DNA of 64,000 nucleotides from Flectonema sp. DT1601 (taxonomy: Eukaryota): the NCBI GenBank assembly GCA_964019425.1, contig OZ025787.1, forward strand, positions 1,364,001 to 1,428,000. Reading direction: 5' to 3'. Shown in pieces: positions 1 through 59,408 of this stretch. The number at the start of each line of letters is the position of its first letter. Positions within the stretch are counted from its first letter, which is position 1. The position numbers and the translations under genes were made by a program. The notes beneath the pieces were generated by a model. It saw nothing but the letters and a program-made list of their open reading frames with translations, searched no databases and was not told where the DNA came from.

Positions 1-162
1 GACAAGAACGACATCAAACTCCACCCTGACGATGAGAATACGAAAACTGAGTCTGAGACCATCATAAAAACTGATAAACCAAACGCAGTTGGAGAAGCAG
101 TTGTGATCAGATCTAGTTCGTGTATTCCACCACCACCACCTCCAATGAGAACTAAAAAGTAA
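1..162 (+). CDS. 3' end of an upstream gene (partial), unknown product
   Basis: Frame 1 is open from the window start (DKNDIKLHPDDE...CIPPPPPPMRTKK) to TAA at 160-162; composition is coding-like and AT-rich spacer follows. Confidence 0.6.
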   Translation, partial: DKNDIKLHPDDENTKTESETIIKTDKPNAVGEAVVIRSSSCIPPPPPPMRTKK

Positions 163-440
163 TTTCAAACTGAGTGGTTGGTTGAAACTATTAAGTGGAA
201 TATATTCACCCTCAGTAATCTTTATCGATTGTTTTGCTGCATATCAGCAAACACACAGCATTTCGTTATCGCCAAACACTTGGCTTATTTTCTGTTTTGT
301 TTTTTTTCCCGTAAAAGTCTTCTTGGGCTTGTACGGTTTATAGCCAATCCCTGCTGAAAGGATAAATTATCATTGGTTGGTTTCGTTTCTTTTTTTTTTA
401 TTTTTATATAAAAAATTATAATTTCAGTTACATTATCAAC

Positions 441-3400
441 ATGAATATCAGGGTCCCCGTTGTACTTCTATCGCTCTTGTCTTCGGTGTGTGGACAGATA
501 TTGCCAGTAAGGACCATCGTTGCTATAGGGGGATTGGCCTTTAACCCCGTTGGTAATTTCGAGGAACCCTGCGATCCGCCTAATTATGTAAATGTAACCG
601 ATGAAATATGTGTAAGTGGATACCCAACAGCAGCACATTATTTTGAAGCCTTGGCCAAACCAACAGATGTCGCAGGGGTTGTTCGAGTCATGGGTACCGA
701 TGAACTCTCAAAAATAACATTATACCATCCTCGTCACTGGGAATTGAACTTAGACGTTTGGAAAAGATTAGATATTGATTTCGGGGTGCTGAGATCTCCC
801 GGAATGTTCACACAACCTGTTTACTACGATGACGCTTTGAGGTTTTTAAATAACAAACACCTACCGGTGGTGGCATCGAACATAGACTTACAACCTTATT
901 ATTATGTTTTTGATTTGGTTGATAAAATATTCATCAAAGACGTTGGAGGTACGAAATTCGGTTATATAGCAATATGGGGAGACCTGTTGTACATAAAAAC
1001 ATACACATACGACTTAGTACTACCCAGCATCGCAGAAAGACTCCGTTCACTAGGTGCGGAAGTAGTTATATTACTCTGTATCGGACAAGCAAAATATTTC
1101 ACAACCCCAACAACATTAGTGAGATTCAATATAGATGCGGTGTTATTGCCTGCTGAGTATACTGATGTTACAACACCAGTCGTATCAAATGGAACGACTT
1201 TGTTAGTTGGAACCTTAGAAAGAGGTGCTTCACATGCTTTACAATACATTGATGCAGTGAAAGCATTTGATTCCCTACTTGGTCGTATGACGTGGAGGTT
1301 TACTTCAACAAATATTAATATGGCAACACCTCTTACTCCTGCTCAGAAAGAACCATTAATTCAAAAAGGAGAATATGATTGGATTCAAACACAACGTGAT
1401 CTGTCACTCGCAAATGATCCTGTCGTTGGTCAGTGTACTCATGATCTACAAGCTGTTAACGATGAAAGTGAAGTTTATTGTCGTTACCAAGAATGTGTTG
1501 GAGGTAACATGGTTGCTGATGCTTGCGCTAGGAGACTTCCAACAGTTGATGTTTGTTTTCCAAATGCAGGAGCACTTCGTCGTGGATGGGATGCAGGCCC
1601 AGTTCACGCCTCTGATGTCACGACGTATGTACAATTTTCTTATTATATCAAACAGATTAGTTAATCATCACCATATTAAAATAAATAAAACAGATTCTTC
1701 CCATACGCAAACACACTCTGCGAACTTAACACAACTGGTGCAGGAATTTGGGAGATATTAGAAGTAGCTGTCGCAAACATTGGAACTGATGGTAATCTCA
1801 ACTCGTCAAACAGAATCTCAGGAGGCTATCTGCAAGTATCTGAAGGATTTAAATATTCTTACAATTGGAGGCTTCCAAGAGGACAACGAATCACATCCAT
1901 CAGTATAAAGGGAAAACCATTAGACCGAAGACGATATTATACCTTGGGTGCGCTTTCTTACTTGTGTTCGGGAGGTGATAGTTTTCCTACACATGTTGCA
2001 GTTCCAAGATCGATAACGTATTTCGAAACAATTAGCGCACACGCAGTCATATCTGAATATCTGAGAACAAATAATCCATACACTCCAAAATTGGAAGAAA
2101 GGATTGTTGTTAACGATTTTGGTGAACCACTTTTGTTAAAGAGACTTCTACCAACTGATTGCAACAGTTCTCAAGTTTTTGTACCGGAGTTCGGATCTTG
2201 TGATGAGTGTCCAGAGGGGTATTTTCATCCGTTGCCTGGATCGGATCCATGTATCCTTGAACCCCTACCACCATCCCCACCTTTAGATAATGCTGTTATT
2301 ATAGTTCCGGCAGTGGTGGTTCCGGTGATGCTCTTGTTAGCGATTTCATTCTGTTTCAAATTACAGAGAGATGGAGCAAAGGCAAAACGAGTTAAGCATG
2401 CTCCAAAAGGAAATGGTGAAATCGCTTTTGTTTTTACTGACATCCAAGCAAGCAGTACCCTTTGGAGTACTGAGCCTACCGCTATGAGTAAAGCATTAGA
2501 AACTCATCACAGGCTCATAAGAGAATTAATCGATCAGTTTGAAGGTTACGAAGTGAAAACAATCGGTGATGCGTTCATGGTAGCATTCTCAAATCCAATA
2601 AATGCCGTTGCGTTTTCTTGTGAAATGCAACTGGAGTTAGCGAATGCTTCATGGCCTGAGAGGATTATGGATTTAGACCCAGCCAAGACTGAACCACACT
2701 ACTCTGGTCTTAGAGTTCGAGTTGGTGTACATTGTGGTCCAGCAAAAGTCAACAGCACTCCTCAAGGTGGATTTGACTACGATGGCGGAACTGTGAACGC
2801 ATCTGCCCGAATTGGTGATTGCGGTTGTGGAGGACAAGTATTGATATCCGATACGGTTTATGATTTAATAGAACCTCATATCGATGTCTTAAATCACAAT
2901 GTCGACGTAAAGTATCTCGGTGAGTACCACCTCCGTGGTATTGCCGAACCTATGGGAATTCTTCAAATAATGCCCGAACCGTTGAACCTCAGAGCATTTG
3001 GTAACTTACGCGGGGTCACACCCATTTCGGAAGAAGAAGCAGTAGAAACACCAGCAGACGTATGTGTTGTACCACCTGATACTGGAACAGTACTTTCTGA
3101 AAAGTCAGAAGCATTAGGTTATACTAAACGAGATAGAATTGTTGCTCTTCAAACAATTAGAAAATATGCTCTCTCATTTGGACCGAGAGGAATGCCGTTT
3201 CCGACTGCGACATCGTTGCTGTGCCACTGCTTAGAAACGAGATCTCTTAAGGATTCTAAGTTGATTTCAATTTTACTTCTTCACGCCCAAGACGGTGCAC
3301 GACCACCGCCATTATCAAATGTACCTGGAAGAGGTAATGAATACGTTGTACATATTGCTAGTCCTTCACCACCGGGAGGACAAAAGCGACCTCAATTATC

Positions 3401-3773
3401 AAAAGGGATATCAAACAATAGAATGAGTACTAGTTTTAGAAGCCCTAAAGGTTTAGTTGATTCAGGACTTGACTTTGCTTCTCCTGAAACTCATCAGACA
3501 GATTCACCAACTGACCTTACCTTGTATTTGAGATGGGCAGTCTTTGTTGAAGTTTTACATCAGCTTCCAACTGCTTGCATATGTCAGTTGGCTAATAAAA
3601 TAAGAGAAGAGAATGGAAATATCTCTCCTGGCGTTTCAATGGATCACGATCCGTCACCCATTTCTCCGACCTCTGGGATAGTCGCACTGCTACCTTCACA
3701 TGAATTAACAAGTGGAGGGTTTGCTGTACCTCCACATCCACCACCAAATCCTCCAAAAAAATTATCTGCTTAA
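441..3773 (+). CDS. Receptor-type adenylate cyclase with a 5'-nucleotidase-like ectodomain; join(441..1624,1694..3773), ~1087 aa
   Basis: Signal peptide. Metallophosphoesterase-like segments LPVVASNID, KDVGGTKFGYIAI, LRSLGAEVVILL. 5'-nucleotidase C-domain motifs CRYQECVGGNMVADA, NAGALR, FFPYANTL (restored by removing GTATGT..AAACAG intron 1625-1693), GGYLQVSEG, GGDSF. Cys-rich CDECPEGYF, one TM helix, and class III cyclase motifs FTDIQASSTLW, YEVKTIGDAFM, DYDGGTVNASAR. Confidence 0.88.
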
Positions 3774-3974
3774 TAGTTTGTCGATCTGTGTGTTATCGTA
3801 CATCTTGTAGGGCTTTCTGTGTGCTTTATTGATTGCATGTATTAGAACCCAATATCACTGTAGTAAAAAAAGCAGAGTTAATTGCGACTTATTTCTCAGA
3901 GTATTTTCTGCGTCTACTTCGTGAAATTATTTTTTTAAAAACTGGCCACACCCCCCTCCTTTTCGTTCTAATTT

Positions 3975-4311
3975 GTTGCGTGTTAACCTTGATTTATTTA
4001 TCCAAGTCCCCCCTCCTTTTCGTATCGTATCAAAGGTCCCCCCTCCTCGCTCATTATATAAAAAGTCTTACGCCGTTTTTGTTTCTTTATCGAAAGAAAG
4101 TACATTCCTGTACCAAAAAAGTTACATTGAGATACTATGAGGTCAATTTCTGTGAGAGCTCTGCAGTTCAAGCATAGAATGTAGGAGTGACACAGGAGTG
4201 ATGAGTTTATTTCGATAAGCCTCACCACTCTGGACTTTGCCAATTAATGTATTTTACTCAAAACCCGTCGATGCGCACCACCCCCAGCATTACTTGTTGG
4301 ATAGGATTAGT
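3975..4311. repeat. Degenerate dispersed repeat family A, copy 1
   Basis: Colinear blocks GTTGCGTGTTAAC.TTGA.TTATTTATCCAAGTCC, CTGTGAGA, CTGGACTTTGC.AA.TAAT and CCCCAG...AGGA.TAGT are shared with 47991-48342. Confidence 0.7.
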
Positions 4312-5832
4312 GTGCTTACGAACTAGTATTATAAGCTACCTCATGTTTTTTTTTAAAGAAAATTATTTATTTTATTGACAAGTAATTAATAGGTTAAACC
4401 TACACTCTGCTGTATCACATTATACTCACGACTTATTAAGTAAATTGAATAACTCGATTCCGTATTGCACTGAATGACGATTATAATGTAAAGTCTTGTA
4501 CGTCACCTGACAGAGTGGTTGCCTATACTAATATTACCTTTAGCCACTGTATCATAACTAGCGTTTTATTTTAGTTAAATTCTGATGCAATGCAGATGTT
4601 TATTTCTTCATAAAAAAATTCGAGCATTTCAACGCCCCCGTATCGTATTAACTCCACTCTTTATTTTTTCCCCTTGTTCATTCGGTATTCTATATTAATG
4701 TTGTTCTGGTTTCTTAGTTATGCTTTATGGTCACTTCGTATTTTTTTTTTTTTTTTTTAAAGTGAAAGAGAGAAAAAAAAAAAAAAAAAGTAATTGTTTT
4801 TGGAAACGCATAAATCCCTTTTTTTTTAGCTTTTCAAGGTGGCAACAGATTTGTAGTATTTCTGTTTTTGAGAATCAAAAAAAAAAAAAGCCAAAAAATT
4901 ATTGTTTTTGTTAAGTTAATACTTTTTTTTAAAAAAAAAATTTGTCTCCCCGTTTTTTATGTAATTAGTTTTTTTTTTTTTTAATTTTTTTTTGTTGTTG
5001 CATTTTCGCTGTGCCTTCCTGTACCCTTACAACACTGATACAGCGCTTCTTTGCAATTAAAAGAAGTTATGTAGCAAACATGATGTCGTTTTTTGGTGGC
5101 CATTTAGCGAACGTGGGCAATTGGATTGGTGACTCTAACAAAAGTGTGCATCCCATACAGAACTTTTGCCCTGCGTTTACGGGACTGAGCAAGCTCTACA
5201 ATTGTTTTGTGATTGATGTTGTTCCCCTTCTGATGTTTTTAGGGGGGGATTTGAAGTGCTTTTTCAAGTGAATTTCACACAACGATCCGACTGATAATTC
5301 TTTTTTAATTTTTTATTTTTTTATCTCATTAGGCGACGTAATCTGCGAGTCCTTCGAATTGCTATCAACCAGAAAATAGAAAGTTGAGGGAAATACTGCT
5401 GTATTTTCCCACTACCCGAAAATATTGATTGATGAATTATGAAGGGTTGTGTTCAGATCTGCGGGTGGCGCATAGCAGGAATCTTAAAGTTTTTTTCCTC
5501 CCCAGCTTGATAATACAGTATTTATTCCCATTCCTTTTCTTTGATTAACAATTACAAATGTTTCGGTCAAGGTACTTTTATTTGGTATTAATTTTGTTTT
5601 TTTAATACCCCTAAAGTTTATTACTGTTTTTTTTATATTGTCAAAGGATTACCCCTTCCTTTCTTTTTTTTCTTTTTTACTTGCGACTATATAAAAAAAA
5701 AAAGAGTTTGGCAACATACTTTCGTTTTAAGTCAGTTCGCGGTTTTCGTGTTCTGTCAAACATTATTTCACGGAGGGAAAATAATCTGTGGTTTAAGTTA
5801 GGGTCGTTTTTTTTTTTTCATCTCGAAGACAT

Positions 5833-10708: not shown

Positions 10709-10983
10709 CTGTTTGTATTCTCAGACAACGTGGTCGTGCTTGTTTCTTCAAGTTACGCGCCCTCCAGGCAGTCAATTGTCTCAAAACTATCCCACAGGAC
10801 TGCTGCCGTTCTTAACCTGTTACGTCCTTTTACTATTTATTATAATTTTTGTAGCAGGAGAGTACCTTCAGAAATGAGTTGACATTGTAGCTCCCTATAA
10901 AGATACGATTAGACAAGATGAACTCTATCAGGGACAATAGTTATTTAGTTACTCTTTACTTTACTTCAGAAAACAAATACAAA

Positions 10984-12522
10984 ATGAAATCCATCCTCGC
11001 CCTCTTAATGGTGGGGCTCGTAGCTGCTGCTGGCGAGCCATTATTCCTCTCTGACATGATTAAAGGAGGTCGTATTGAGGAAGCGCAGAATGCTTCCCGT
11101 GTGTACCTTCCAGGTCTCCCTACCACACTAATCAGCTACTCAGGTTACGTTACTGTGAACGCGAGTTCTAACGGTCACACATTCTTTTGGTACTTTCCTC
11201 CTCTGAATGGAAACTTGTCAGCTCCAACTATGATGTGGCTTCAGGGAGGACCAGGAGGTAGTTCATTGTTTGGATTATTCAGTGAGATGGGACCTATCAT
11301 GGTAAACGATGCTGGAACTCAAGCAGTACCAAATGAACTGTTATCATGGACTAGAGAATACGGAATGGTATTCGTTGATAACCCAGTTGGTGTTGGATTC
11401 TCTTTGTCTGACCCTGAGGGATTAGCTCAGACTAAAGAACAATACATGACTACTTTATATTCTTTTATTAGTCAGTTTCATCAGTTGTTCCCAAACCTTT
11501 TAAAGAACGACTTCTACATCTCTGGAGAGTCATATGCTGGAAAGTACGTTCCTGCTGCTGCCTACAAAGTTCACCAAGAGAACGCAAAAGGAACACTTCC
11601 ACTCATTCCGTTGAAGGGAATCTTAATTGGAGATGGTCTGTGTGATCCAGCTACTATGATTCCTCAATACCCATACCTCACTGAGGCATTCTCTCTTGTA
11701 AACTGGAATCAGGTTAAGGTGATGCAAAACTACTCTGATGCTGCTAGTCAGTACATGGCAGCAGGACAGTGGGAGCAGGCCTTTCATCAGTTTGATTTAA
11801 TGATTAACGGTGATTTGACTGGTGTAACTCCATACTTGGCTAATGCGACTGGATTCGGTGATTACTTCAACGCATTGTCACCAGAGTACTCTCAGCCATT
11901 TGGAAAGGACTCACCTTTCCAACAGTACCTTAACCGTCCTGAGATCCAGAAAGCTCTTCACGTTAACAAGACTTACCTCAGTTACACAAAGGCTGTTGAG
12001 GTTGCGATTGTTAATGACGTTGCTCAGTCTGTAAAACAATTCTTCCCAACACTTCTTGCTAGCTACAAAGTGTTATTGTACTCTGGTCAGTTTGATGTTA
12101 TCGTTGGAGCTCCACTCACCATCGCATTCATTAGAAGTATTCAATGGCCAGGACAGGCTGCATTTGATGCTGCCCCAAGAACTATCTGGCACTCACGCTC
12201 TCCAGTTCTCGGTGTTATGGGTAAGCTTCTTGGATCAAATGACGTTGCTGGATACCACACTCAGGAAGGTAACTTGAACTACGTTATTGTTCGTAACGCT
12301 GGTCACATGGTGCCAACTGATCAACCGCTGTGGGCTTTGGACATGGTCACTCGTTTTATTAAAAACATCTCTTTTGCTGGTCCAGTCCCAAGCAACATCC
12401 CTGACCCAAAGCCACCAACTACAATTGCTTCAGAGCTTCACAAACTTGCAGACCTTCACCGCAATGGCGATCTCACAGATGTGGAGTACGCTGCGGCAAA
12501 GTCTCAATTACTTAACCTCTAA
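10984..12522 (+). CDS. Serine carboxypeptidase S10 (CPVL-like), secreted/lysosomal, with a C-terminal SHOCT-like tail
   Basis: Signal peptide MKSILALLMVG; WLQGGPGGSS, VDNPVGVGFS, catalytic GESYAG, GQFDVIV and AGHMVP. Start taken at the AAAATG at 10984. Confidence 0.95.
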   Translation: MKSILALLMVGLVAAAGEPLFLSDMIKGGRIEEAQNASRVYLPGLPTTLISYSGYVTVNASSNGHTFFWYFPPLNGNLSAPTMMWLQGGPGGSSLFGLFSEMGPIMVNDAGTQAVPNELLSWTREYGMVFVDNPVGVGFSLSDPEGLAQTKEQYMTTLYSFISQFHQLFPNLLKNDFYISGESYAGKYVPAAAYKVHQENAKGTLPLIPLKGILIGDGLCDPATMIPQYPYLTEAFSLVNWNQVKVMQNYSDAASQYMAAGQWEQAFHQFDLMINGDLTGVTPYLANATGFGDYFNALSPEYSQPFGKDSPFQQYLNRPEIQKALHVNKTYLSYTKAVEVAIVNDVAQSVKQFFPTLLASYKVLLYSGQFDVIVGAPLTIAFIRSIQWPGQAAFDAAPRTIWHSRSPVLGVMGKLLGSNDVAGYHTQEGNLNYVIVRNAGHMVPTDQPLWALDMVTRFIKNISFAGPVPSNIPDPKPPTTIASELHKLADLHRNGDLTDVEYAAAKSQLLNL

Positions 12523-26670: not shown

Positions 26671-27072
26671 GCCCCCTGTGGCTTATGAATCACTAATACA
26701 GTTCTATTGCTGAAAAATAATAACACAAGTACAAGTTTATAAAAATTAAAAAAAAAGAGAAGAGAAGAGAAAGAATAAGTAATAAATAAGTCCAACAACA
26801 GTTTTTTCTTCTTCTTTTTTCGTATTTTAAGGCAGAACTGCGACCAAGAATAGAAGCCAAAAAAACCCTTTATTTTGCCGAAGAACAACATGTTTTACAA
26901 AAGGGTTAGCATTAGATACCTTTCTTGAATCGTATTGTATAAACTAACTCTCATAACAGGTCATCGATGTTTACTTTTTGTACAGAAGTGTTTTTGCCAT
27001 AATCTATTTTCTATTATTATTATTATTATTATTATTATTTTCTTTAAAAAAAACAGAGTTCTGGTAGCAATC

Positions 27073-30000
27073 ATGGGTGATAAACCCATAATGCGGCAGG
27101 TGAAACGAAGTAATTCGCAGGTGAGTTTAGGACTTGGTTCACCCCTGTCGCCGACGATATCCGCTTCCAGTAGTCCTGGGGGAACGAGACGAGTCAGACT
27201 GCAGGATTTTGGTTTACCCGGATCCCCAACAGTCACATCCCCCGTTCGACTCCGACGAGGACGCAGCAATTCGACGCCTAATTTAAATAACTGGAAATCA
27301 AATCATTGGCAACTCTTATCTAATATTATATTCGCTACTTCACATCTTAAAAAACGTGTCGGAAACGTAAGAAAACATACCAACAGACAACACTTTTATA
27401 AATATATTGATGACGTGTCTACTTGTTCAAAATGCTCTAAGAAACACATCGCAGACACGGACTGGTATCGTTGTAATATATGTCTTCATACTCATGTTGA
27501 TCTGTGTAGGCAATGCTTCAGAAATTGGAATCATCCTCAGCATTGGTTTTCTGAAATGAGTCAAGCATCGTATACTATGTTTCACAAAAGAATTAAACGA
27601 AGGTGGTACATACTACGTCTCGGTATGAGATCTGAAGCAATTCGACCACTTATCGATCGGTTTCACAGTAAGATAATCGCTCACCTGATTCAGCTACTCA
27701 CCCCGTCGGCAGACGAGCCTTCAGGTGTTTTGAAAAATACGATAAATTGGTGTCTGGCGATACCACATTTAAAAAAACTTCTAACTGGAAATAAACAAAC
27801 ATCATTAGCAGCTTTTTATTGGAAAGGTGGGAAAGCTGGATTTGCACGTCCTCTTACTCCGGAAGCAAAGCAAAAACTGGTTGACTATTTAAGAGAACAA
27901 GACAACAGTGGAAGGGAACGTATTACTATTAGTGATGCATCATCAAATGTTGACTTAGCTGACGGCTCGATTAAAATTGTTTATGAAGATAATCCTGTTG
28001 AGTTTATAGTAGCGGGAGGGGCATCCAATTCAAAGCTGTTTTGTAAATTTCCAAAAAGAGATCCGTTTAGGGTGACGAAAGTTCTTTTAACTGATGTGAG
28101 TAAACCAAACTCTGTTGTTATTCTTGGACCTCCTAAGATGAGTTTAAAATTACCATGGGGACTTACAGAACAAGATCAAAGACAAACTCTTTCTATTCTG
28201 ACCACACTGCGATCGATTACAAAAGTATTCGACATCGTTTGTACCATCCCTGAAAGTCTCCTACTTTGTAGAAATAAAGATAATCTCAAAGAGAATGGAT
28301 CGATATCAAGAAAGAAAGGATTACATCACGTCATAAATAGAAACATCCTTGAGGGATACAGTAAAACCGCTCAACAGATTACAGCAATGCCTGGGTCTGT
28401 AAGACAAAGCAACGTACAACAAAAAGAAATGTGGAATTCAAGTAGTAAAATCGACGACCGTCACCATCGTGGATTGCTAGGCGGTAATACCCCTGCACAT
28501 CTTGAGTTAATTCACTTAAAAGGTATTCATTCACTTTGGGAAGACACCACACCAGCAGTTATTCACATTCTACGTACAATGATGAATGGTCTTGTTGATG
28601 CATTGAAGATTGTTACTAATCAGAAACAGGTTAGAACAGCAAATAGTAGTTTCAATGTCTTTGAAGGATTGGTTCCCGACAACTGTCACGAATCTTTAAT
28701 ATGTAAGGAAGTTGTTGATATTGTAAGGAATTACAATACGAATGGAAAGGGAATGTTGAAAATTACTTCTGACTCTTCAACTGAAACGAAAACTCAATCA
28801 GGTCAATGGGACAGTTTACAAGGTTGGGAAGCATGTCATCACACTAGTAGGTTACGTTCTGGTCGAGTCTGTTTTGAAAATAGCGACATGACTTGCTCTG
28901 CGACTACTCGTCATGATACTGTCGCTCTGGGAAAACAAATTATAACAACTTCGTCAATTTCAACTGTCGTGACTTATAAAATTATCGAATCGTCTGAAGA
29001 CATGTTTCTCGGAATCACACCAACCTCATCTGGGCCAACTGTTTTCGATTCAAAAACCTTCCCGATAATTAAAAAAAAGGATACCCCCAATACTTTCAGT
29101 GGTATTTTTTATAAGGGTGCTGGAGTTGTGTGTCTGCCTGGTGTCTCTAGCGAGGCGGTAGCTGAGAACTTAGTATCCTCGACACCTGTTGTGAATTGTG
29201 GTGATGTTCTAAAGTTTAGGGTAAAGCCCAGCCTTCGTAATGGATTCATAAAAATAACACTAAATGGACAGCTGATCTTTCACAGAAAAGGTATTTCATT
29301 TCCGAAGTGCGGATTAACGCCTTACGTTTTATTTAGAAGCAGTCCCAGATGCAGAGTTCAGATATCAAAAATTGAAGCTCCGAATGAAAGTCGAAAGAAA
29401 CTTGTCTCTGACCCTCTCAGTACTACACCTCCGGCTGTGTTGAGGATGTTGCGTGTTATGGAAAGTACTTTTTTTAATCACTTTGATAGATCATTAAGAA
29501 GACCTCCACCACGTGATCAAGTCACTTTAGTATTTACTGATGTTCAGTCATCAACTGTACTATGGGACAAGTCACCTGACGGCATGAAAATAGCTCTCGC
29601 TCTTCATAATTCTGTTCTTCGCAGACTTATTGAAAAGTGGAGAGGTTATGAAGTTAAAACAGAAGGTGACGCATTCATGATTGCGTTCCAAAGAACAGAA
29701 CACGCATTGAATTGGTGTCTTGACTCTCAGAGAGAATTATTAAAAATTAATTGGCCAGAAGAGGTTCTAACACTACCAGCAGCATCTGTTGTTAACGCTG
29801 TCGACGGAACTCCAATCTTTAGAGGACTACGAGTGAGAATGGGATTCCATACAGGAGAACCAGAATGTGAACAAGATCCTGTAACAGGTAGAATGGATTA
29901 CTTCGGTCCAATGGTTAACCTCGCTGCTCGTATCTCTGGTGTCGGTCAAGGGGGTGAAACTGTTATTGGAGGAGCTGCCTTTCGACATCTCCACCGTAAT

Positions 30001-32583
30001 GGTTCCCTCCCAGACTCAGCTGTTCATTTATACTGTCATGGATCAATATCACTGAAGGGAATCACTAGGAATGAGAATTTATTTTCTCTCCTTCCTATGG
30101 AACTTAAGGAACGGGTTGACTACTGGGAAAAGAAAGATAAAACTGTGCAAACTGTCTTTGAAACAAATACAAAGAAAGTACAAGACGTTATACAGCAAGC
30201 TGTGCGTGATCGACAGAAGACACCAACAGCAGCAGGTACTGCAACAACAACAACAACTACAAAATACAAATCTGATCAAGACGTGAGCACACCAGAAGTA
30301 CCTGGGCTAACTCCACTAACAAGTGATACTAGCTTGTCTAGCAGCGACACAGCTACTGAATGCAAAAAAACCAACTGGGTCAGAACTGTCTGGAGACAAG
30401 CTGTAAAAATGCAACTAGAAAGAGAAAAAGACCACGACAGTCAAAAAAACTCAATAACAGACACAAGAGAAGTTAAAATACAAACAGAACCACTCCTGCA
30501 CTCACATGTAGATATCGGATCAAATAGAATGCAAGAATCCATTGAATGCCTCTTAATGTCAATGCATGAAGGACAACACGTCACTCTGTGTGATTTTAAC
30601 AGTGATGCAAGTCGACTCAATGGATGTGAAGGTGTTGTTGCAGGTTATGATACGAATATGGTTTTTGTTGAAACAACGAAGTTTGGTCAAGTTTCTATTC
30701 ATAAAGATAATCTTATAAAGAGTTCAGTGAAGACTCCTGTGGCTGAAGCTCAAACTCAAACTCGAATATTGAGATCAACGAGAGTTAGTTTAATGGAATC
30801 TGAAAGAGGTGATCATTATGATCAAAGAGTCTCAACAAGATCACGAGGAGGTAGTATGGGCTCAACAACATCAGAAATCAGTTATCACAGAAAGAAGAGT
30901 CGATCACCACGTGAAGATAATATGAGACCCGTTCAAAAACTCTTATCCAATTCAACTCCTAAGACTCCTCGTTCTCCAATAAACTTAAGATCTCCACTCA
31001 GTCCTGTGAAGGAAGTCAGCATCGTCTCATTCAATATCGATGAGCCTTCAGCTGATAGCTCCAAGGGAACTCACTCACAACAAATCGCAGAACTGGAATC
31101 TCACATTACCACACTCAAAGGAAATATTAAAAAATTAGAAGAAGAAATTCAATCACCGACAAAGAACTCTGCGGACAACAGTTACATAAAACAACTTGAG
31201 GAGGAAATTAAATCGATGAAAGAAAGATATAAAACAACAACAACCGGAAGTGGTAGGGTCGCAGTATTGGAAAAAAAACTATCCACGACAAACGATAAGC
31301 TTCAAGAGGCTGACAAGCACTCTATCCTTTTAAAAAAAAGCATCTCTGATTTGCAAAATAAACTTAGCAAAAACCAGGAAAAAGACTCCAGTATCAATGC
31401 AGAAAATAAGAATTTAAAGGAAAAAATTGCAGAACAAGATGAAAGTATGAGATCATTAAAAAAGAATGCATCGATGACTCTTCGTCGGCTTGAAGCGGAG
31501 GAACTGTGTACGGAGCTTCGAAAAAAGAATTCCAGCTTACAAGAATTAATCACTAAACAAGAGAAGGAAATAATCTCTTTACAACATGTTATAAAGCAAT
31601 TAAAAGAATCAAATTCAACAACAGTCACCATCGACGATAAGTCCAACACCAACTACACTGAAATACTTGAAGGGCGAGCAAGAGAATTCGACTCAAAGGA
31701 GGCTTCGTATAAGTTACTTATCACTTCATTGAGGAACGCTGAAACCAATTATGAAAAATTAATTTCATCGTTGCGAAAGCAGCTCGTGGATTCCAATAAT
31801 AAGCTTTCAGCTGTCGAGGCGTTACCGCAATCGCCAGTTAAAAATGCCACGCCGCCGCAATCTCCAAATAAAAGTACCGCGTCGCCGCAATCACCAATTA
31901 AGAGTACTACTGTATGTCGGAAATGTGAAGCCGTTGAGATTACTTTGCAACGCGTGGCAGATGTTTCAAAAAGAGAAACCGAGTTAGCTGTTGCTCAGAA
32001 AAAGTTTGAGGAACTCCGACATGTGATTACGACCGTTGGTAGTGATTTCGAAGGTTCAGAAATAGGAAGTCCGCTGTCATTGTGTAGTGTTGAATCTGTA
32101 GACGCTTCATTGAGAGCAAAGTTAAAAATTGCCTCCACATCAACATGTCAAAATTGTTTAGGAGTTGCCGCAGGGTTCGCTAGATTAGAACAAGTATATC
32201 AGCAACGGAGTAGATCAGAATCTCCTTCGCATTGGCAATCTGGTGAGTTGGGGCAGTCTCCATTCAAATTTCCTGAAGCTGAGTCGCTAACGAGATCACT
32301 AACAAGTCCACAACCCATATGCTCAACTCTTGATAAGAAACCACTCGGATCGCAATCTTCTGATCATGCTTTTAGAATGGCAGCTGGTGGCAAAGTTCTT
32401 CGCCGAACTTCTGGAAAGCCTGTCACAGCACCCATTCTTGGAACTAACCTGACGATGAGTATTAGTGATTCACTATCTTCTGGATCATTGGCTTCCCCAT
32501 CCGGCTTCATTGCAGCTCCGTCATTCTCAGCTGTTCGTATGCAACCAGTAAGACAACGAAAGAGACGTACAACATTGTCTTAA
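27073..32583 (+). CDS. Soluble multidomain adenylate cyclase: ZZ-type zinc finger, SPRY-like domain, class III cyclase, coiled coil
   Basis: CSKC....WYRCNIC....DLCRQCF...H..H (ZZ); SPRY-like DMFLGIT..GDVLKFRV..ITLNG..LTPYV; cyclase FTDVQSSTVLW, YEVKTEGDAFM, GLRVRMGFHTG, DYFGPMVNLAAR. No TM helix once the start is set at ATG 27073. Confidence 0.88.
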   Translation: MGDKPIMRQVKRSNSQVSLGLGSPLSPTISASSSPGGTRRVRLQDFGLPGSPTVTSPVRLRRGRSNSTPNLNNWKSNHWQLLSNIIFATSHLKKRVGNVRKHTNRQHFYKYIDDVSTCSKCSKKHIADTDWYRCNICLHTHVDLCRQCFRNWNHPQHWFSEMSQASYTMFHKRIKRRWYILRLGMRSEAIRPLIDRFHSKIIAHLIQLLTPSADEPSGVLKNTINWCLAIPHLKKLLTGNKQTSLAAFYWKGGKAGFARPLTPEAKQKLVDYLREQDNSGRERITISDASSNVDLADGSIKIVYEDNPVEFIVAGGASNSKLFCKFPKRDPFRVTKVLLTDVSKPNSVVILGPPKMSLKLPWGLTEQDQRQTLSILTTLRSITKVFDIVCTIPESLLLCRNKDNLKENGSISRKKGLHHVINRNILEGYSKTAQQITAMPGSVRQSNVQQKEMWNSSSKIDDRHHRGLLGGNTPAHLELIHLKGIHSLWEDTTPAVIHILRTMMNGLVDALKIVTNQKQVRTANSSFNVFEGLVPDNCHESLICKEVVDIVRNYNTNGKGMLKITSDSSTETKTQSGQWDSLQGWEACHHTSRLRSGRVCFENSDMTCSATTRHDTVALGKQIITTSSISTVVTYKIIESSEDMFLGITPTSSGPTVFDSKTFPIIKKKDTPNTFSGIFYKGAGVVCLPGVSSEAVAENLVSSTPVVNCGDVLKFRVKPSLRNGFIKITLNGQLIFHRKGISFPKCGLTPYVLFRSSPRCRVQISKIEAPNESRKKLVSDPLSTTPPAVLRMLRVMESTFFNHFDRSLRRPPPRDQVTLVFTDVQSSTVLWDKSPDGMKIALALHNSVLRRLIEKWRGYEVKTEGDAFMIAFQRTEHALNWCLDSQRELLKINWPEEVLTLPAASVVNAVDGTPIFRGLRVRMGFHTGEPECEQDPVTGRMDYFGPMVNLAARISGVGQGGETVIGGAAFRHLHRNGSLPDSAVHLYCHGSISLKGITRNENLFSLLPMELKERVDYWEKKDKTVQTVFETNTKKVQDVIQQAVRDRQKTPTAAGTATTTTTTKYKSDQDVSTPEVPGLTPLTSDTSLSSSDTATECKKTNWVRTVWRQAVKMQLEREKDHDSQKNSITDTREVKIQTEPLLHSHVDIGSNRMQESIECLLMSMHEGQHVTLCDFNSDASRLNGCEGVVAGYDTNMVFVETTKFGQVSIHKDNLIKSSVKTPVAEAQTQTRILRSTRVSLMESERGDHYDQRVSTRSRGGSMGSTTSEISYHRKKSRSPREDNMRPVQKLLSNSTPKTPRSPINLRSPLSPVKEVSIVSFNIDEPSADSSKGTHSQQIAELESHITTLKGNIKKLEEEIQSPTKNSADNSYIKQLEEEIKSMKERYKTTTTGSGRVAVLEKKLSTTNDKLQEADKHSILLKKSISDLQNKLSKNQEKDSSINAENKNLKEKIAEQDESMRSLKKNASMTLRRLEAEELCTELRKKNSSLQELITKQEKEIISLQHVIKQLKESNSTTVTIDDKSNTNYTEILEGRAREFDSKEASYKLLITSLRNAETNYEKLISSLRKQLVDSNNKLSAVEALPQSPVKNATPPQSPNKSTASPQSPIKSTTVCRKCEAVEITLQRVADVSKRETELAVAQKKFEELRHVITTVGSDFEGSEIGSPLSLCSVESVDASLRAKLKIASTSTCQNCLGVAAGFARLEQVYQQRSRSESPSHWQSGELGQSPFKFPEAESLTRSLTSPQPICSTLDKKPLGSQSSDHAFRMAAGGKVLRRTSGKPVTAPILGTNLTMSISDSLSSGSLASPSGFIAAPSFSAVRMQPVRQRKRRTTLS

Positions 32584-38085: not shown

Positions 38086-39147
38086 TATTCTTTTTATTTT
38101 TTTTCTCAAATATATTTCTTAACAACGTTAAAAGTAATAGACATGTTTCAGTATTCCGTCTCTTTTTCATTTTCTTTTTTTCTTAAACTTAATCACTGGC
38201 CATATGCAGTTGGTCTTAGTTATTTTATTTTGTTATTTTTATTCTTAATTCTGGTTTTTGCAATTGCGCGTATTCTTTTTATTTTCAACAAGAAACTTCA
38301 TTCGGAATCACTTTAACAGATGTGAGTCTGTCTTAATCCTTTTGCACTTTGTTGAAATCAAGAATCCAGCACTGTTTGCCATGTGAGGGATTACAATTCT
38401 CTAGCTTTGCTTTTTCTCGATACCCCCACTGATGGCGGTGAAATTTTGTTTTATTTCTTTACAAGAATATCACATCATCTTATTCTTGACTGATTGATGT
38501 TCTAGTTTACTATTATTATTTTCATAGCAGTTGTGTTGTTGGTTGTTTGTAGCTGATCGGACTCTCTATTTTTAAGGAAAAAATTCGACTGACAGTTGCC
38601 AACAACAAGAAAACATGCTTTTGCTACACAGTTTCTCTTTTGCTGTTGTTTTTATCTGCTGTGGGGTGTTTATTTTTGTTGATTTTTTCCTCAAAAGTAT
38701 AATTCCATTTGCAGTAAATAAGAATAAGATTACCCGCAGTTCTCAATCAACTGTTTGGGTATTCTTCTTCACCAGTTATTTTTGCGTATATTCCTTTTAA
38801 AATATATCTATCTGGCATGATTTTCACGGAATCATGTTTGTCTTTTTTTTTGCATCCCTATTTTTTTGTAAGGAGGGAAAATCCATTGATAGTTCACAGT
38901 TCACAATTACGTTTTTGCCCAACCGTGTTTTCCTCCCTTTTCTTTTTCTCCAGTTGCGTCGCTGAAAACTAAACCAAATCAAACTTCTGATTCTGAGGTT
39001 GAATCAGTCACAGCAACTGTGAAAAAAAGTAATAAAACGTTTTGTGTTGTGTTCTGGAGAAGTTTTTCTGATATCTGACTTCAAATTATTATTATTATCA
39101 GTTTGTGACTTACATAATTATTTCTACAGCCTCTCCCCAGGTTGGAA

Positions 39148-40882
39148 ATGAGGGAACACGTATCTCCAAGATACGCTATTGGGAGGAGGTCATGGAAGTC
39201 AATAATGCTTGCCTTTGTAGCTGGAATGCTCGCGACTACATTGGTAAGTCAAGCTCGTTTATGGGACTGGGATGGAATGAATTTGAATAAAGAAATAAAA
39301 TCACCAGTTCAAAGCGAAGCGGTCAACATGATAGCCGACAATATAATGACAACAAAGCAGGCTTTTGATATAAAAAGATTCTTACAAAGACTAAAGTTAT
39401 CTGGACACTACAGCAGCTTACTAATAAGACGAGGTTATGACATGGATTCTTTAGCTAAAGCTACAATAAATGACCCAGAGCCTGGGATTAAAGCAGCACA
39501 CTGGAAGACTATCATATCTGAGGCTCGCATCGCAGCTGATAAGATTATTCAAAGTACAAACAATGATATTAATCATGTCGTGTCAACAGTTGTTAAGCAA
39601 GATGACGAATCAATATTCAAACTACTACTTGAGGGCAGTGATGAAGACGAACAACAAGAACAGCAACAACAACAGTCTCAACAAAAAAATCAACCGCAAG
39701 TGATAGCTGCGACTAATTCTACAAAAGATATTTCCTTGTCAACGCCACTACCAACTGCTATCCCTAATCCCCCAGACAAAACCCCTGCTATCTGTATTAC
39801 CATACCTCTTAGTGAGAATATACGAGTTGAGTATTTGAAATGGAAAGAAGTAACTCGATTATCTGTAAATGGAACAATTAATTTTAAAAATAAAGTTCCA
39901 ATCTGTAAAGGAATTCGTGAGACTGTTACAGACAAAGCATTCAACAGTGAGTTCATGTCCGAGCATCGGACAGCACCGGCGAGAGCGATGTCAGGATTGC
40001 GTGGATTTAATAAGCAGCGTTTGTCTGTTAATCAGATTGAGGATCTGAGATCAAGTGGTGTCATTGAACAACTCTATTTTGATCATGATTTAAAAATAGC
40101 ATATTGCGCAGTTCCAAAGGCTGGGTGTACTGAAGTCAAAGCTTGGATGCTAAACAACGCTGGACTTTACAAAAGATCAAGAACCCCTCACAACAGAACT
40201 TTATACACTGGAGAGAGAATTCAAAACGGACAAGTAATGAGCAACGAGCGACTGCAACAAATTTTCAGTGACGGTGAGTATTTCAAGGTATGACTTCTTT
40301 TTGGTCATCTACGTTGCTTCTTGTCTATAAATATTAAAATCTAACATAACAAAACAGTTCACACTAGTAAGAAATCCATTCACAAAGGTACTTGCTACCT
40401 ACTTGGAAAGATTTAACGAATGTGAAAAGCAAATTCGAAGAACGAAAGGAGAATGTGACATGTGGAAGAGAGCTTTATTAGAATTGAAACGAGGAGAAAA
40501 CATGAATGGGATAACTCTACCAAACGATACGATTTCATTTACTGATTATCTTAAAGTAATGAAAGATCATCCTCACGCTGATGTTAACTTCAGGAACACT
40601 CATTGGGTTAATAATGTTGACATATGCGCTTTAAAAGATCTCACATATGATTTCTTAGGAAGACTCGAAGACAAGAATGATATCAAACTAATCTACGACC
40701 TCCTTGGCAGTAAAATGATGGATACACTTCGACATTCTGAAGGTACGAGTAAGAAGCTTAAGAAATATTATACGAAAGAGTCAAAAGATTTGGTCAGTCA
40801 AATATATCAAGATACCGACTATGAAGTCTTGGGCTATTCGGGTGATAATGTCGTTCCTGATTTCTCGAATCCAGCTGCTTGA
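39148..40882 (+). CDS. Type II membrane sulfotransferase (Sulfotransfer_2 / CHST-like) with a SAM-like domain in the stem; join(39148..40287,40358..40882), ~554 aa
   Basis: TM anchor; 5'-PSB motif YCAVPKAGCT; spliced YFK|FTLVRNPFTKVLATY (3'-PB); YDFLGRLE; DYEVLGY. Intron 40288-40357 is GTATGA..AAACAG. Confidence 0.88.
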
Positions 40883-41317
40883 TGAGAAGAAAAAAAAAAA
40901 AACATGGAAGTCTATTCGTTTTTTTGTTTTTTTTTTAAATTATTGTAATAGGCTCTGTTGCTCTGATAGTTGCAATCTATTCGTGGGGGGAGAAGGGCAA
41001 TCCATTTTTTTATATTAAAAAAAAAAAAATAATAATAATAATAATAAGTGATGTATTACACCATCAAGATACCTAATATTCCTGATACTATGTCACTCCC
41101 CCGCCTGTTGCTGTTGTTGGCTGCTTCATTCGATAATTGAATTAAACAAGTCAACAGTCTAACTACAGCCATAAAACCGGGTGTAAGATTTGCTCTGATT
41201 CGTAGCCTTCATCTCTTTAGCGGAGATAGGACAATCCATTTTTGTAAGGTACGATTATTTTTAAATCTATAACTGTTGATAATATTTTACACACTTTTCT
41301 TTTAACAGAAGTAGGGA

Positions 41318-42559
41318 ATGCCGGAGGTTGGTGGCAGTCCGAAGAAGGAGGGAGGTGTTGTTAAAAAAAAGGAAAAGCGTCGCCTGTATTGTTGTTTTAT
41401 AACATGTTCTCTATTAGTTGTTGCGGTGATGATGATGAAAGGAGATCAATCTGTAGCTGGAAAAAGACAATCTCGAGAGGCTACTGAAGAAGCAGAAGGT
41501 TTACGAGTTCAGGACATCCTCGAACTGGAACTCTCTCTAATCTCAGAAGACCCTCCACAACTTGAATCAGAGCCTCTGATATGTTCATCATTGAGATCTA
41601 CAGAAGCAATAAAATCATTCTATTCAAAACATTGGAATAAATCATCATCGTCATACCCAGTACCAAAGCGATGCACTGGAAGTAATAATAACTATTTACC
41701 AATCAGAGAAAGACATATAAAAAAAAACGCTCAGTCACCTCTACTTAGAAGCACAACACTAAGAGCATCTGCTGACAAACCCTACTTAAAAATATCAGAA
41801 GATGAAGCAATTCAGTTGATAGACAAACTTCGATCAACTGGAGTTATAGATCAGCTATATTTCGATCACACAGCAAAGATAATGTACTGCGCTGTTCCAA
41901 AGGCAGGTTGTACTGGTATTAAAGCATGGATGCTAAGTGCTGCAAGTCTATATAAAGGTGGTACTGTTCACAATAGGCAGCTTTACAAGGGACCCAGGAT
42001 ACAACATTCTCAGTTTATGTCTAACAATCAATTTATAAAAATTTTAACTGAGGGTGAATATTTTAAATTCACTGTTGTGAGGAATCCTTTCACCAGGGTT
42101 TTCGCAAGTTATTTAGAAAGGTTTGCAAATTGTTCAAAAAAAAGAGCATTTAATGAATGTGATATGTGGAGGAGGAGACTTACTGGTGGTCGTTGTAAGA
42201 TCTCAGACAACTCATCCTACGTCGACATGTTAAAGGTGTTGAAAGATTGTCCTTTTCGGAGTGTTGATTTCGCGAATGCTCATTGGATCCCATCGGTGTC
42301 AACATGTTCACTAACTGATCTTCCGTTTGATTTGATAAGTCGATTAGAAAGTAGTTCTGATATGGAGTTAATTAATGATATTACTGGGTTTAAAAAACTT
42401 AGGTCAACATCAGTTGCAAAAGGTCATTCAACGCGTTCACAGTCGAAACTTCAGAATCACTACGACAGTGAAGCGATTAATTTATTAAAAACATTGTACA
42501 ACGATGATATTGAACTGCTTGGATATAAACCCCCTCCTGGAATTAAAAAAGAAAAGTAA
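41318..42559 (+). CDS. Type II membrane sulfotransferase (Sulfotransfer_2), tandem paralog
   Basis: YCAVPKAGCT, YFKFTVVRNPFTRVFASYLERF and DDIELLGY; clear block similarity to the upstream paralog. Confidence 0.9.
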   Translation: MPEVGGSPKKEGGVVKKKEKRRLYCCFITCSLLVVAVMMMKGDQSVAGKRQSREATEEAEGLRVQDILELELSLISEDPPQLESEPLICSSLRSTEAIKSFYSKHWNKSSSSYPVPKRCTGSNNNYLPIRERHIKKNAQSPLLRSTTLRASADKPYLKISEDEAIQLIDKLRSTGVIDQLYFDHTAKIMYCAVPKAGCTGIKAWMLSAASLYKGGTVHNRQLYKGPRIQHSQFMSNNQFIKILTEGEYFKFTVVRNPFTRVFASYLERFANCSKKRAFNECDMWRRRLTGGRCKISDNSSYVDMLKVLKDCPFRSVDFANAHWIPSVSTCSLTDLPFDLISRLESSSDMELINDITGFKKLRSTSVAKGHSTRSQSKLQNHYDSEAINLLKTLYNDDIELLGYKPPPGIKKEK

Positions 42560-45972: not shown

Positions 45973-46278
45973 GTAGGATAGTTGAACTGCTTGACTAGGT
46001 CCAACAGATATATTAAGCTTACCTCAACCCAAGGGTAACTTGACACTACTTTTCTATTTAAAATAGTATTGTGTTTTATAACTATTTATCTTAAGAAGAA
46101 GAAGAGAAAAAAAAAAAAGACTAAGCCAAGTATACCACTACCGAAAGGTAACTTGCGCTTGTACAACAGCAGTATGATTCTTAATGGTAGAGGGCCTTCA
46201 ATTGTGTGCTGCTTGTTTTTTTTAAAGTTGTTACATTATTTCTGTTTGTGTCAGTAAAGGGGATTCAAATACACAAAA

Positions 46279-47823
46279 ATGAAAGTATCACAAGTGTTGA
46301 TTATATGCTCGTTGTTATTTGTTTGTGAAGGTAATGAATTTTGTTGTCAAGGACAGCATGTGAAACCTGGTATTCTAAAGGCAACACGCGAGCCATGGTG
46401 GAAATATCACGGAACTGAAGCAAGGTGTGGTGATAAAACACAACCATGTGATGTTAACGTTTGTAACGAATGTTGGAGTGGATTGGTACCTGACTTACAT
46501 CGAACTTTATCAGAACAGACGGGATACTCATACGAACTTGTTGGGGCACCACCTGGAACTACCACAGAACAGTTACTTAACTTATTAAGAGATGGAACTA
46601 TTACTATGTTACCTCATGAGTTAGGGTTGTCATCATTCTCTTCTGATATGCAGGACAATTTTAGTTTTACGCAACCGTTTGTAACTTACACGTACTCAGC
46701 TCTTGTAAAAAGTGAAAGAACTACTGCAGACATGTGGTCTTTGTTTAAACCATTTACTCTAGGACTGTGGTTAATAATCTTAGGTGTTGTTGGCTTGTTC
46801 TCTCTGACTTTCTGGGGACTTGAAGGAAACACAAACACTCCTGTGGGTGGTGCTGCTAGAGGTGTTGAATTCGTGTTCGCTTCACTACTCGGTGGGATGG
46901 AATACGACGGTGTCAGAAGGGATGGTCGTCTTGGAAGGTTTCTCAGAATAGGATTATTGTTTTTTGTATTAATCATCACTGCTACATACACTGCAAACCT
47001 TGCCTCTATATTAACAACTAAGAATTTAATATTACACGGACCTAGAAATATGGAACAGCTAAAAACTGCAACTGTCTGTAATTTTGACAACCCTCTCGTA
47101 AGAACTGACATCCAAACACACACAGAATACGTTATGACACCAGATGGAAATTCACGTCAATGGGAAGCTACAGAACTAGGTCGAAGAGACTGCATTAACA
47201 AGCTCCTTGACGGAACAGTTGGTGCTGTAATTGCCAATGTCTTGGAGTTAAAACAAATGCAAAAAGACTTTGGTGTCTGTGACCAAGTAAAGCATATTCC
47301 TTTAATTGCTTTCAATCCCCGATATGTTACTTTTATGACTACTAAAAATAACTCAGCCTTCGCTCAGAATTTGACGGAAACGATTGTTAAACTTCAGACA
47401 AACAAACTTTTAATGAATATGATGAATGAGAATTACGAAAGCGCCTGTACTACAGAACCAGCTAAGAAAAACTACCAGTTGGATATAGAAAATCTGGGTG
47501 GTTTGTTCTGTATTACAGGAGCGTGGGTAGTCATCACGATACTTTGCAAGCTAGCTACTGTTGCTGGAATAGGAAGGGGAATCATTCCAGATGCGAATAA
47601 TAACATACATGAAAATCAAACAGATGAGATTATGCAAAAACTAAATTCAATTCTTGAGGAAGTATCTTCGTCTCACAGAGCGAGACCACTTCTCAATGAG
47701 GCGGAATCTTACAGCAGCTCTGCTAGTCAAAAACCGTTCTTTGAGTCTACGACGAGTTATTATGTGGCCCCTCTTAGTAGAGTACCGTCTAGAAAGGTAC
47801 ATCCCGGCACAGTTCAGGCATAG
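46279..47823 (+). CDS. Ionotropic glutamate receptor-like ligand-gated channel lacking the amino-terminal domain
   Basis: Signal peptide; S1 ending FSFTQPF; pre-M1 MWSLFKPFTLGLW; re-entrant loop; M3 gate ATYTANLASILT; S2; M4 LDIENLGGLF. Confidence 0.88.
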   Translation: MKVSQVLIICSLLFVCEGNEFCCQGQHVKPGILKATREPWWKYHGTEARCGDKTQPCDVNVCNECWSGLVPDLHRTLSEQTGYSYELVGAPPGTTTEQLLNLLRDGTITMLPHELGLSSFSSDMQDNFSFTQPFVTYTYSALVKSERTTADMWSLFKPFTLGLWLIILGVVGLFSLTFWGLEGNTNTPVGGAARGVEFVFASLLGGMEYDGVRRDGRLGRFLRIGLLFFVLIITATYTANLASILTTKNLILHGPRNMEQLKTATVCNFDNPLVRTDIQTHTEYVMTPDGNSRQWEATELGRRDCINKLLDGTVGAVIANVLELKQMQKDFGVCDQVKHIPLIAFNPRYVTFMTTKNNSAFAQNLTETIVKLQTNKLLMNMMNENYESACTTEPAKKNYQLDIENLGGLFCITGAWVVITILCKLATVAGIGRGIIPDANNNIHENQTDEIMQKLNSILEEVSSSHRARPLLNEAESYSSSASQKPFFESTTSYYVAPLSRVPSRKVHPGTVQA

Positions 47824-58976: not shown

Positions 58977-59408
58977 AATCTTGTGGGAAATGTTCTTAAG
59001 ACTTTCGTAGTGCTCTCTTCTTATTAGTTCAGGTTCAAAGTAGTTTTTTTTTACTCAGGTTTTACTTCTTGAGAAAAATCCTCCGTTTTCGTTCTCTAGT
59101 CGCCACTTTTATTTTTACGTTTCTTGTTTTTCGTTTCTTTGCCTGCCAATTGTTTTCGTACCTTCCTCTGTCAAAGTTATCTCATAATACTAAATAGTAT
59201 CATTTACACTCATCTGTGTTTAGCCTAGTTATGTGTGTGAAAGTGAAAAGTATTTTAGGGGATCCGTTGTTCTGTTTTTATAGTAAAAACATAAAAATGA
59301 AATACATCATTTACACATTCTATACTGTTGTTGTTTTGTTGAGTAGTTATTGGGCAACCCCAGATCTTATCATTTCATATATCACATAGAGAGCCACACG
59401 CCCATAAC

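Follow-up and report, generated by a model that had tools for sequence, protein, structure and literature searches.

A receptor-type adenylate cyclase with a pseudo-5'-nucleotidase ectodomain in Flectonema: a candidate sensor of nucleosides or nucleotides

In a 64,000-nucleotide stretch of DNA from Flectonema sp. DT1601, which we take to group with the diplonemids (contig OZ025787.1, positions 1,364,001 to 1,428,000; hereafter the window), the forward strand encodes a protein of 1087 amino acids (aa) in which an outer region with the fold of a 5'-nucleotidase is joined by one transmembrane (TM) helix to a class III adenylate cyclase. This is a new ectodomain variant of the receptor-type adenylate cyclases, real and family-wide. 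Across 38 relatives, catalytic positions of the 5'-nucleotidases have been lost while positions of the nucleoside pocket have been selectively retained, in full in only some of them, and the favoured reading, to which sequence comparison lends a probability of roughly 0.55, is that of a receptor adenylate cyclase that senses nucleosides or nucleotides.

Receptor-type adenylate cyclases are defined by an ectodomain, a single TM helix and a class III cyclase on one chain (PMC7719234). They constitute one of the chief families for signalling at the surface of trypanosomes and their kin, and a ligand has been identified for none of them, those of the trypanosomatids included (PMC7719234, PMC10354285). 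In the protein described here the ectodomain predicts its own class of ligand with six named contact residues, which turns the open question of the ligand into one that is directly testable. If the favoured reading is true, abundant marine protists would sense extracellular nucleotides without G-protein-coupled receptors (GPCRs) or P2X channels, and a candidate function would follow for 5_nucleotid_C where it is listed on protist GPCRs. The design escapes standard annotation, as Pfam Metallophos misses the dead domain in all of the relatives scanned (0/38) and the public gene call is truncated.

Gene structure and the single chain

Two open frames on the forward strand, 366-1664 and 1689-3773, are fused once nucleotides 1625-1693 are excised, and the spliced product, beginning with the ATG at 441, reads in one frame through 441-1624 and 1694-3773. 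The excised segment has a GC content of 0.20, against 0.42 in both exons, and introns of D. papillatum are mostly of the GT-AG type (PMC10161547). Within the scanned range the frame can be restored through any of seven GT-AG pairs; the pair at 1625-1693 is preferred over the six others because it leaves the Pfam 5_nucleotid_C domain nearly unbroken (profile positions 2-62, then 66-155) and because the orthologue P0001, a transcriptome protein of Flectonema neradi, reads across the 1624/1694 junction. P0001, the sole close relative recovered by word-index searches, shares 72% identity with exon 2 over 667 residues and 90% with the last 42 residues of exon 1. It starts late, with the first 352 residues absent; the linkage of the two halves is nevertheless complete, since the first 352 residues encoded in the window share an open frame with the start of the C-domain.

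The preliminary description of this locus had proposed a 69-nucleotide intron joining the two frames, and the GT-AG ends, the continuity of the Pfam domain and the orthologous transcript protein spanning the junction confirm it. The order of domains given there (metallophosphoesterase-like, 5'-nucleotidase C-domain, Cys-rich linker, TM helix, class III cyclase) is also borne out and is common to at least 38 relatives, and we regard the one-chain architecture as virtually certain. The public gene call at the locus, P0002 (about 2076-3773 of the window), is a protein of 609 aa annotated with the cyclase family only, so that the ectodomain is hidden. A Pfam scan found no kinase family in either exon, and no repeats of interest were found in positions 1-5000 of the window.

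The ectodomain: catalytic centre and nucleoside pocket

The N-domain is visible to profile and structure methods only, as phmmer with exon 1 against the PDB gave 0 matches and an NCBIfam scan of exon 1 gave none. Compared with eight bacterial 5'-nucleotidases by hhalign, exon 1 aligned with a probability of 96.5% over residues 79-393 and the family profile with 100%. A feature search of the Atlas returned Metallophos plus 5_nucleotid_C clusters at 0.95; an Atlas search with P0001 gave no usable match. An AlphaFold2 model of exon 1 built on a 40-row family-only alignment had a predicted local distance difference test (pLDDT) score of 84.7, and the single-sequence prediction (pLDDT 31) was of no use. 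Foldseek placed 5'-nucleotidases at the top of its matches to this model (the Thermus enzyme 2z1a, E 1.5e-12; CD73, about 4e-12), behind an integrative YunD model. The superposition that had been proposed for the ectodomain yields a match of folds: VIA-align of the model with CD73 gave a Z of about 23 and a root-mean-square deviation (rmsd) of 3.8-6.3 over 334-341 residues, colinear over CD73 26-412, with identities to 5'-nucleotidases of 9-16% in the structural alignments. The model lies closer to closed CD73 (rmsd about 4.0) than to the open form (5.3-6.3), but it includes just one third of the C-domain and no inference is drawn from this.

Within this fold the catalytic centre is missing. 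The metal ligands of UshA, which we take to be D41, H43, D84, N116, H217, H252 and Q254, were verified in the UshA sequence, and five of them are invariant in the eight bacterial sequences. In the Flectonema protein D41/H43 correspond to about G31/A33, N116/H117 to S119/P120, H217 to C213 and H252/Q254 to A238/Y240, so that of the seven ligands of the dimetal site six are lost, the D84 equivalent D87 alone is kept, and the catalytic His117 has become P120. The roles of His117, which is catalytic, and of F429 and F498 have been described, and the substitution H117A nearly abolishes the activity of CpdB on 3'-AMP (PMC7922932). These motifs were read from the hhalign and family-only alignments; an alignment that also included bacterial sequences put the first and third N-domain motifs in the wrong place. 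In the family-only alignment the H217 column has gaps (10 rows), D41/H43 are located only approximately, and for P0049 the match to R354 is in doubt. The DxH position falls outside the hhalign alignments and was placed by way of strand 1 of the model and the order of the motifs. The loss of the metal motifs asserted in the preliminary description therefore holds, with two amendments: the second metal Asp, kept as D87, had been overlooked, and the counterpart of GGHSH, given as LLPAE, is LPAEY, one residue later. The ectodomain is very probably catalytically dead, and an active ecto-nucleotidase is rejected on the loss of six of the seven metal ligands and the catalytic His.

The C-domain presents the opposite picture. 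The six residues of CD73 that contact adenosine monophosphate (AMP), namely R354, N390, R395, F417, F500 and D506, correspond to R348, N375, R380, Y399, Y484 and D490; all six are kept, the two Phe as Tyr, and the substrate-binding motifs earlier listed as retained are all present. This retention is informative because the open form of CD73 grips AMP through these six residues of the C-domain and no others (PMC8677862). The CD73 pocket takes purine and pyrimidine nucleotides alike (PMC8677862), and in CpdB, where the C-domain determines inhibition by adenosine, the inhibitors comprise adenosine, 2'-AMP, 5'-AMP and cyclic AMP (cAMP) (PMC7922932); for these reasons the ligand of the Flectonema protein is not nameable from its pocket.

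Relatives were gathered with phmmer, using P0001 against 1.84 billion representatives and taking the best 150 of 26,011 matches. Among these, 40 of 151 proteins matched the nucleotidase profile (P0002 from the locus itself, 38 relatives and P0083), and in all 40 a TM helix is accompanied by a cyclase motif, while GNHE occurs in none. At least 38 relatives thus share the design; Pfam finds 5_nucleotid_C and Guanylate_cyc in every one of the 38 scanned, and Metallophos in none. The named members (8 of the 21 looked up) come from Flectonema, Diplonema ambulator, Lacrimia, Rhynchopus, Namystynia, Apiculatamorpha and, twice, Papus, and are diplonemids and prokinetoplastids; one further member has the prefix Hpha. 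No euglenid or trypanosomatid is among the members so named, and no search was aimed at the absence of these groups. A search of proteins of 2852-5000 aa gave 24 unrelated matches; a cyclase family occurs in 23 of them, 5_nucleotid_C in none.

Conservation within the family follows the division seen in the single protein. With the orthologue set apart, identity to the Flectonema protein is 12-27% in the N-domain and 23-36% in the C-domain. D41 is kept in 1 of 30 relatives, H43 in 0 of 30, N116 in 1 of 35, H117 in 2 of 35 (Pro in 25) and H252 in 0 of 37; the one catalytic position of the N-domain to be retained is the D84 equivalent, in 25 of 34. Conversely, the N-domain has conserved residues of its own (C44, C57, G60, H96 at 0.89, N103 at 0.89, and P120), of which H96 sits in the loop that follows D87 and may make a new contact. 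The stacking positions of the pocket are aromatic in all 38 relatives, and only three of 199 C-domain columns, this pair and Y477, are aromatic throughout; R395 is kept in 32 of 38, N390 in 27 of 38, D506 in 22 of 38 and R354 in 17 of 37. All six pocket residues occur in 16 of 39 proteins, these being the Flectonema protein and 15 relatives, and P0001 is truncated before the first.

In an ectodomain tree of 45 rows (rows of 480 residues or fewer were excluded), 36 family rows lie on one side of a 100/100 branch, with eight bacterial enzymes and P0083 on the other. Full-pocket members occupy several deep branches, over long branch lengths, and an 18-row clade (100/99) contains no member with all six residues. 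With the eight bacterial enzymes as its only active ones, the tree does not point to a donor.

The cyclase base and the candidate function

The cyclase most closely matches, among solved structures, those of GRESAG4.1 and 4.3 (1fx4/1fx2; E 1e-79 with the family profile). The complete adenine-type catalytic set is present and matches the GRESAG motifs: two Asp, presumably binding metal, a Lys and an Asp that we assume to specify adenine, and an Asn and an Arg that we assume to be catalytic. The earlier statement that all of these are kept is upheld, and they are conserved in 35-38 of 36-38 relatives. In 34 of 39 proteins 26-34 residues separate the TM helix from the first catalytic Asp; in P0068, P0073, P0074, P0079 and P0093 the gap is about 100 residues. 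On the outer side of the membrane, the spacer after the Cys module varies from 5 to 34 residues across the family and is Pro-rich in the Flectonema protein. Pfam Ephrin_rec_like matches the Cys module in 5 of 37 relatives, and not in this protein.

The same base carries other ectodomains. Among neighbouring cyclases without the nucleotidase module, 13 of 21 scanned have another recognised domain, which is of a solute-binding type in 11 and Kelch in two. In cyclase trees the nucleotidase-type proteins are intermixed with cyclases carrying PBP_like_2, SBP_bac, NMT1, ANF, PF25493 or Kelch, and the clade that includes the Flectonema protein (98%) holds nine nucleotidase-type proteins and seven with other ectodomains. 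An approximately unbiased (AU) test rejected the monophyly of the 36 nucleotidase-type cyclases (p 6e-65), on a quick tree with a simple model and with the 20 other rows chosen after an earlier cyclase result had been seen. This mixing indicates that ectodomains, mostly ligand-binding modules, have been exchanged on a common TM-cyclase base, and the position of P0033 (NMT1) as sister to the nucleotidase-type P0009 of Lacrimia (93%) suggests a recent swap. Further close cyclase relatives, P0053, P0064, P0067, P0082, P0034 and P0054, likewise have, as does P0033, NMT1/THI5-like, SBP_bac, PBP_like_2 or Kelch domains instead.

It is mainly because ligand-binding modules fill the same slot, which is independent support, that the dead enzyme is read as a sensor. 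The receptor would be located at the cell surface, where an extracellular ribonucleoside or nucleoside monophosphate would sit uncleaved in the C-domain pocket, between Y399 and Y484, with R348, R380, N375 and D490 holding phosphate and ribose. Its presence would change the output of cAMP, which the cyclase would make from adenosine triphosphate as a homodimer. Binding might alter the hinge between N- and C-domains or the pairing of two ectodomains, and in this way shift the dimerisation of the cyclases, which is the most speculative step. AMP or adenosine is a first guess at the ligand, and the base specificity is left wide. The receptor interpretation of the preliminary description is accordingly sustained in part: its architecture, its dead catalytic centre and its kept pocket stand and hold across a family, and the solute-binding domains in the same slot strengthen it; the word 'purinergic' went beyond the evidence, given that the CD73 pocket binds pyrimidines as well and that the 18-member subclade has lost pocket residues.

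Several observations weigh against nucleotide sensing. Twenty-three of the 39 proteins are short of at least one pocket residue, with no full pocket anywhere in the 18-member clade, so that the fold can serve without a complete nucleotide pocket. Structural demands may account for the persistence of some of the pocket residues, and the third all-aromatic column, Y477, is not in the pocket. The loss of metal removes a phosphate contact of CD73's closed state, which makes the driver of hinge closure doubtful, and a spacer that ranges from 5 to 34 residues, and is Pro-rich in this protein, argues against rigid mechanical coupling. Moreover, trypanosome receptor cyclases are reported to be activated by dimerisation under acid or other stress, with no ligand identified (PMC10354285).

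These points leave room for a receptor cyclase whose dead nucleotidase binds something else (an aromatic metabolite, a nucleobase, a glycan or a protein) or acts mainly as a dimerisation scaffold, the pocket being kept for structure or for that other ligand. The equivalents of R354 and D506 are gone in about half of the relatives while both aromatics stay, the new conserved residues of the N-domain (H96, N103 and P120) are unexplained by nucleotide binding, and ectodomain identity is low, all of which agrees with such a receptor; it is nonetheless unlikely in view of the six contacts, both phosphate-binding Arg included, that persist in the Flectonema protein and in 15 relatives from several branches. 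Less probable again is an ectodomain that binds nucleotides without controlling the cyclase, the enzyme being constitutive or under the control of pH, of osmotic stress or of partners in the cytoplasm. The variable juxtamembrane spacer, a cytoplasmic tail of 260 residues conserved in the orthologue, and the trypanosome precedents of stress-induced dimerisation and regulation by CARP3 (PMC10354285) would suit it, but the fusion has been maintained across diplonemids and prokinetoplastids, many different ligand-binding modules occupy the slot, and the distance from TM helix to first Asp is narrowly kept in most of the family. That the outer domain is still an enzyme, acting through a rebuilt site (D87, H96) on a nucleotide-like substrate as half of a bifunctional ecto-enzyme and cyclase, is highly improbable: conservation of D87 and H96 speaks for it, whereas beyond D87 conservation extends to no further metal ligand, Pro replaces the catalytic His in 25 of 35, the D87 equivalent is absent from several full-pocket members, and Pfam Metallophos matches no relative. 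Finally, two separate genes or a decaying locus, with the fusion an artefact of the proposed splice, might be argued from the short public call with its cyclase family alone and from the late start of P0001, and are dismissed as scarcely credible because the junction lies inside a single Pfam domain that P0001 spans and the whole design stands on one chain in transcriptome proteins of Diplonema ambulator, Lacrimia, Namystynia and Papus.

Features, neighbouring genes and known systems

Table 1. Features of the nucleotidase-type cyclase gene (window positions) and the evidence or residues that mark them
Feature	Position	Strand	Evidence or content
Exon 1	441..1624	+	aa 1-394 and two further bases: putative signal peptide, dead metallophosphoesterase, hinge helix, opening third of 5'-nucleotidase C-domain
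Putative signal peptide, ~aa 1-19	441..497	+	hydropathy only
Pseudo-metallophosphoesterase N-domain, ~aa 22-310	504..1370	+	profile alignment, model, structural alignment
D87, kept	699		
H96, family-conserved	726		
P120, in place of catalytic His	798		
Cys pair C44/C57			
Interdomain helix, aa 311-324	1371..1412	+	model helix 292-305 (model starts at aa 20)
5'-nucleotidase C-domain, ~aa 328-535, intron-split	1422..2114	+	Pfam 5_nucleotid_C; pocket R348, N375, R380, Y399, Y484, D490
Intron	1625..1693	+	69 nucleotides, GT-AG, three in-frame TAA
Exon 2, coding part	1694..3773	+	aa 395-1087 plus stop
Four-Cys module (C551, C564, C567, C581), then Pro-rich spacer	2160..2252	+	four Cys are the most conserved linker columns
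Single TM helix, ~aa 596-615	2295..2354	+	hydropathy peak 2.86
Class III adenylate cyclase, aa 636-825	2415..2984	+	Pfam Guanylate_cyc E 1e-27; D644, K683, D687, D756, N763, R767
Cytoplasmic tail, aa 826-1087	2985..3770	+	no Pfam family; 60% identical to orthologue

Only one other cyclase was found in the window, an open frame of 1884 aa at 26929-32583 (+) whose class III cyclase spans aa 861-1046 and whose tail is long, charged and probably coiled-coil; its cyclase groups away from the receptor type. Also on the forward strand are a serine carboxypeptidase (Peptidase_S10) with a C-terminal SHOCT domain (10891-12522), two adjoining related genes with a common YCAVPKAGCT motif that are presumably sulfotransferase-like (39118-42559), an ionotropic-glutamate-receptor-like protein (46258-47823; Pfam Lig_chan, E 3e-12), and two nearly identical DUF5703 proteins in tandem, hydrophobic at the N-terminus (59343-61577 and 62503-63999), which we take to be glycoside-hydrolase-like.

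Among known systems, the kinase-cyclase-kinase receptors of amoebozoans are also single-pass proteins with a class III cyclase, but two kinase domains flank theirs (PMC4053784, PMC4758236); the Flectonema protein has no kinase family and membership of that class is rejected. P0083, a Logan record of 1398 aa, combines a single-pass kinase-cyclase-kinase core with a pseudo-5'-nucleotidase ectodomain that has decayed less and has a full pocket, in which D41 and D84 are kept, H43, N116, H117, H217 and H252 are lost, and the Cys module and HP motif of the family are lacking. Its position outside the 36-row clade (100/100) may reflect a second conversion. The domain 5_nucleotid_C is also listed on the ectodomains of glutamate-family GPCRs in Capsaspora (PMC3251606) and in choanoflagellates and other animal relatives (PMC12716839), with GCC2_GCC3/Ephrin_rec-like listed in the same receptor family; the use in a receptor ectodomain is the same, the output there is a seven-TM domain and not a cyclase, and the comparison is one of domain lists, silent on ligands and on any loss of catalysis, and not of sequences.

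Novelty is for this reason lower than had been implied, since 5_nucleotid_C is already in print on GPCR ectodomains, although none was found on cyclases. No description of a nucleotidase-cyclase fusion was found in the titles and abstract openings of the open-literature papers listed, subscription journals and InterPro architecture pages lying outside that search. The word 'nucleotidase' is absent from the available main text of PMC7719234, PMC6366073, PMC10161547, PMC4053784 and PMC4758236, and the available supplement rows of PMC10161547 contain adenylate cyclase orthogroups and do not name the fusion. Related architectures may be shown in supplementary domain figures of the papers on Acanthamoeba, Physarum, Euglena and the receptor-type cyclases, and in supplementary file 12 of PMC12716839. 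One may tentatively propose, as a possibility that falls short of being probable, an undescribed euglenozoan family of one-chain nucleotide receptors, derived from a killed ecto-5'-nucleotidase wired to an adenylate cyclase, of which the present member would sense extracellular AMP or adenosine from damaged prey or neighbours. On this proposal no euglenozoan receptor cyclase before it would have had its ligand known. The conversion of enzyme to sensor would then have happened more than once in eukaryotes (cyclase, kinase-cyclase-kinase, class C GPCR), giving an unrecognised class beside P1, P2X and P2Y.

With its metallophosphoesterase N-domain, hinge helix and 5_nucleotid_C, the ectodomain belongs to the structural superfamily of UshA and CD73. 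It shares with CD73, UshA and Thermus 2z1a the two-domain fold with hinge helix, all six AMP contacts and Cys pairs at matching places, and differs from them in lacking the catalytic His and all but one of the seven metal ligands and in being fused to a TM helix and a cyclase. By its one-chain layout and full catalytic set the whole protein qualifies as a predicted euglenozoan receptor-type cyclase. The trypanosomatid receptor cyclases (ESAG4/GRESAG4; 1fx2, 1fx4) likewise have an ectodomain, one TM helix and a class III cyclase on one chain, but their ectodomain is of the periplasmic-binding-protein (Venus flytrap) type, whereas that of the Flectonema protein is a 5'-nucleotidase fold followed by a four-Cys module. 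A Pfam scan found no PF25493 in it, a family matched by P0130, P0140 and P0145, and on this ground and that of its ectodomain fold an assignment to ESAG4/GRESAG4 proper is rejected.

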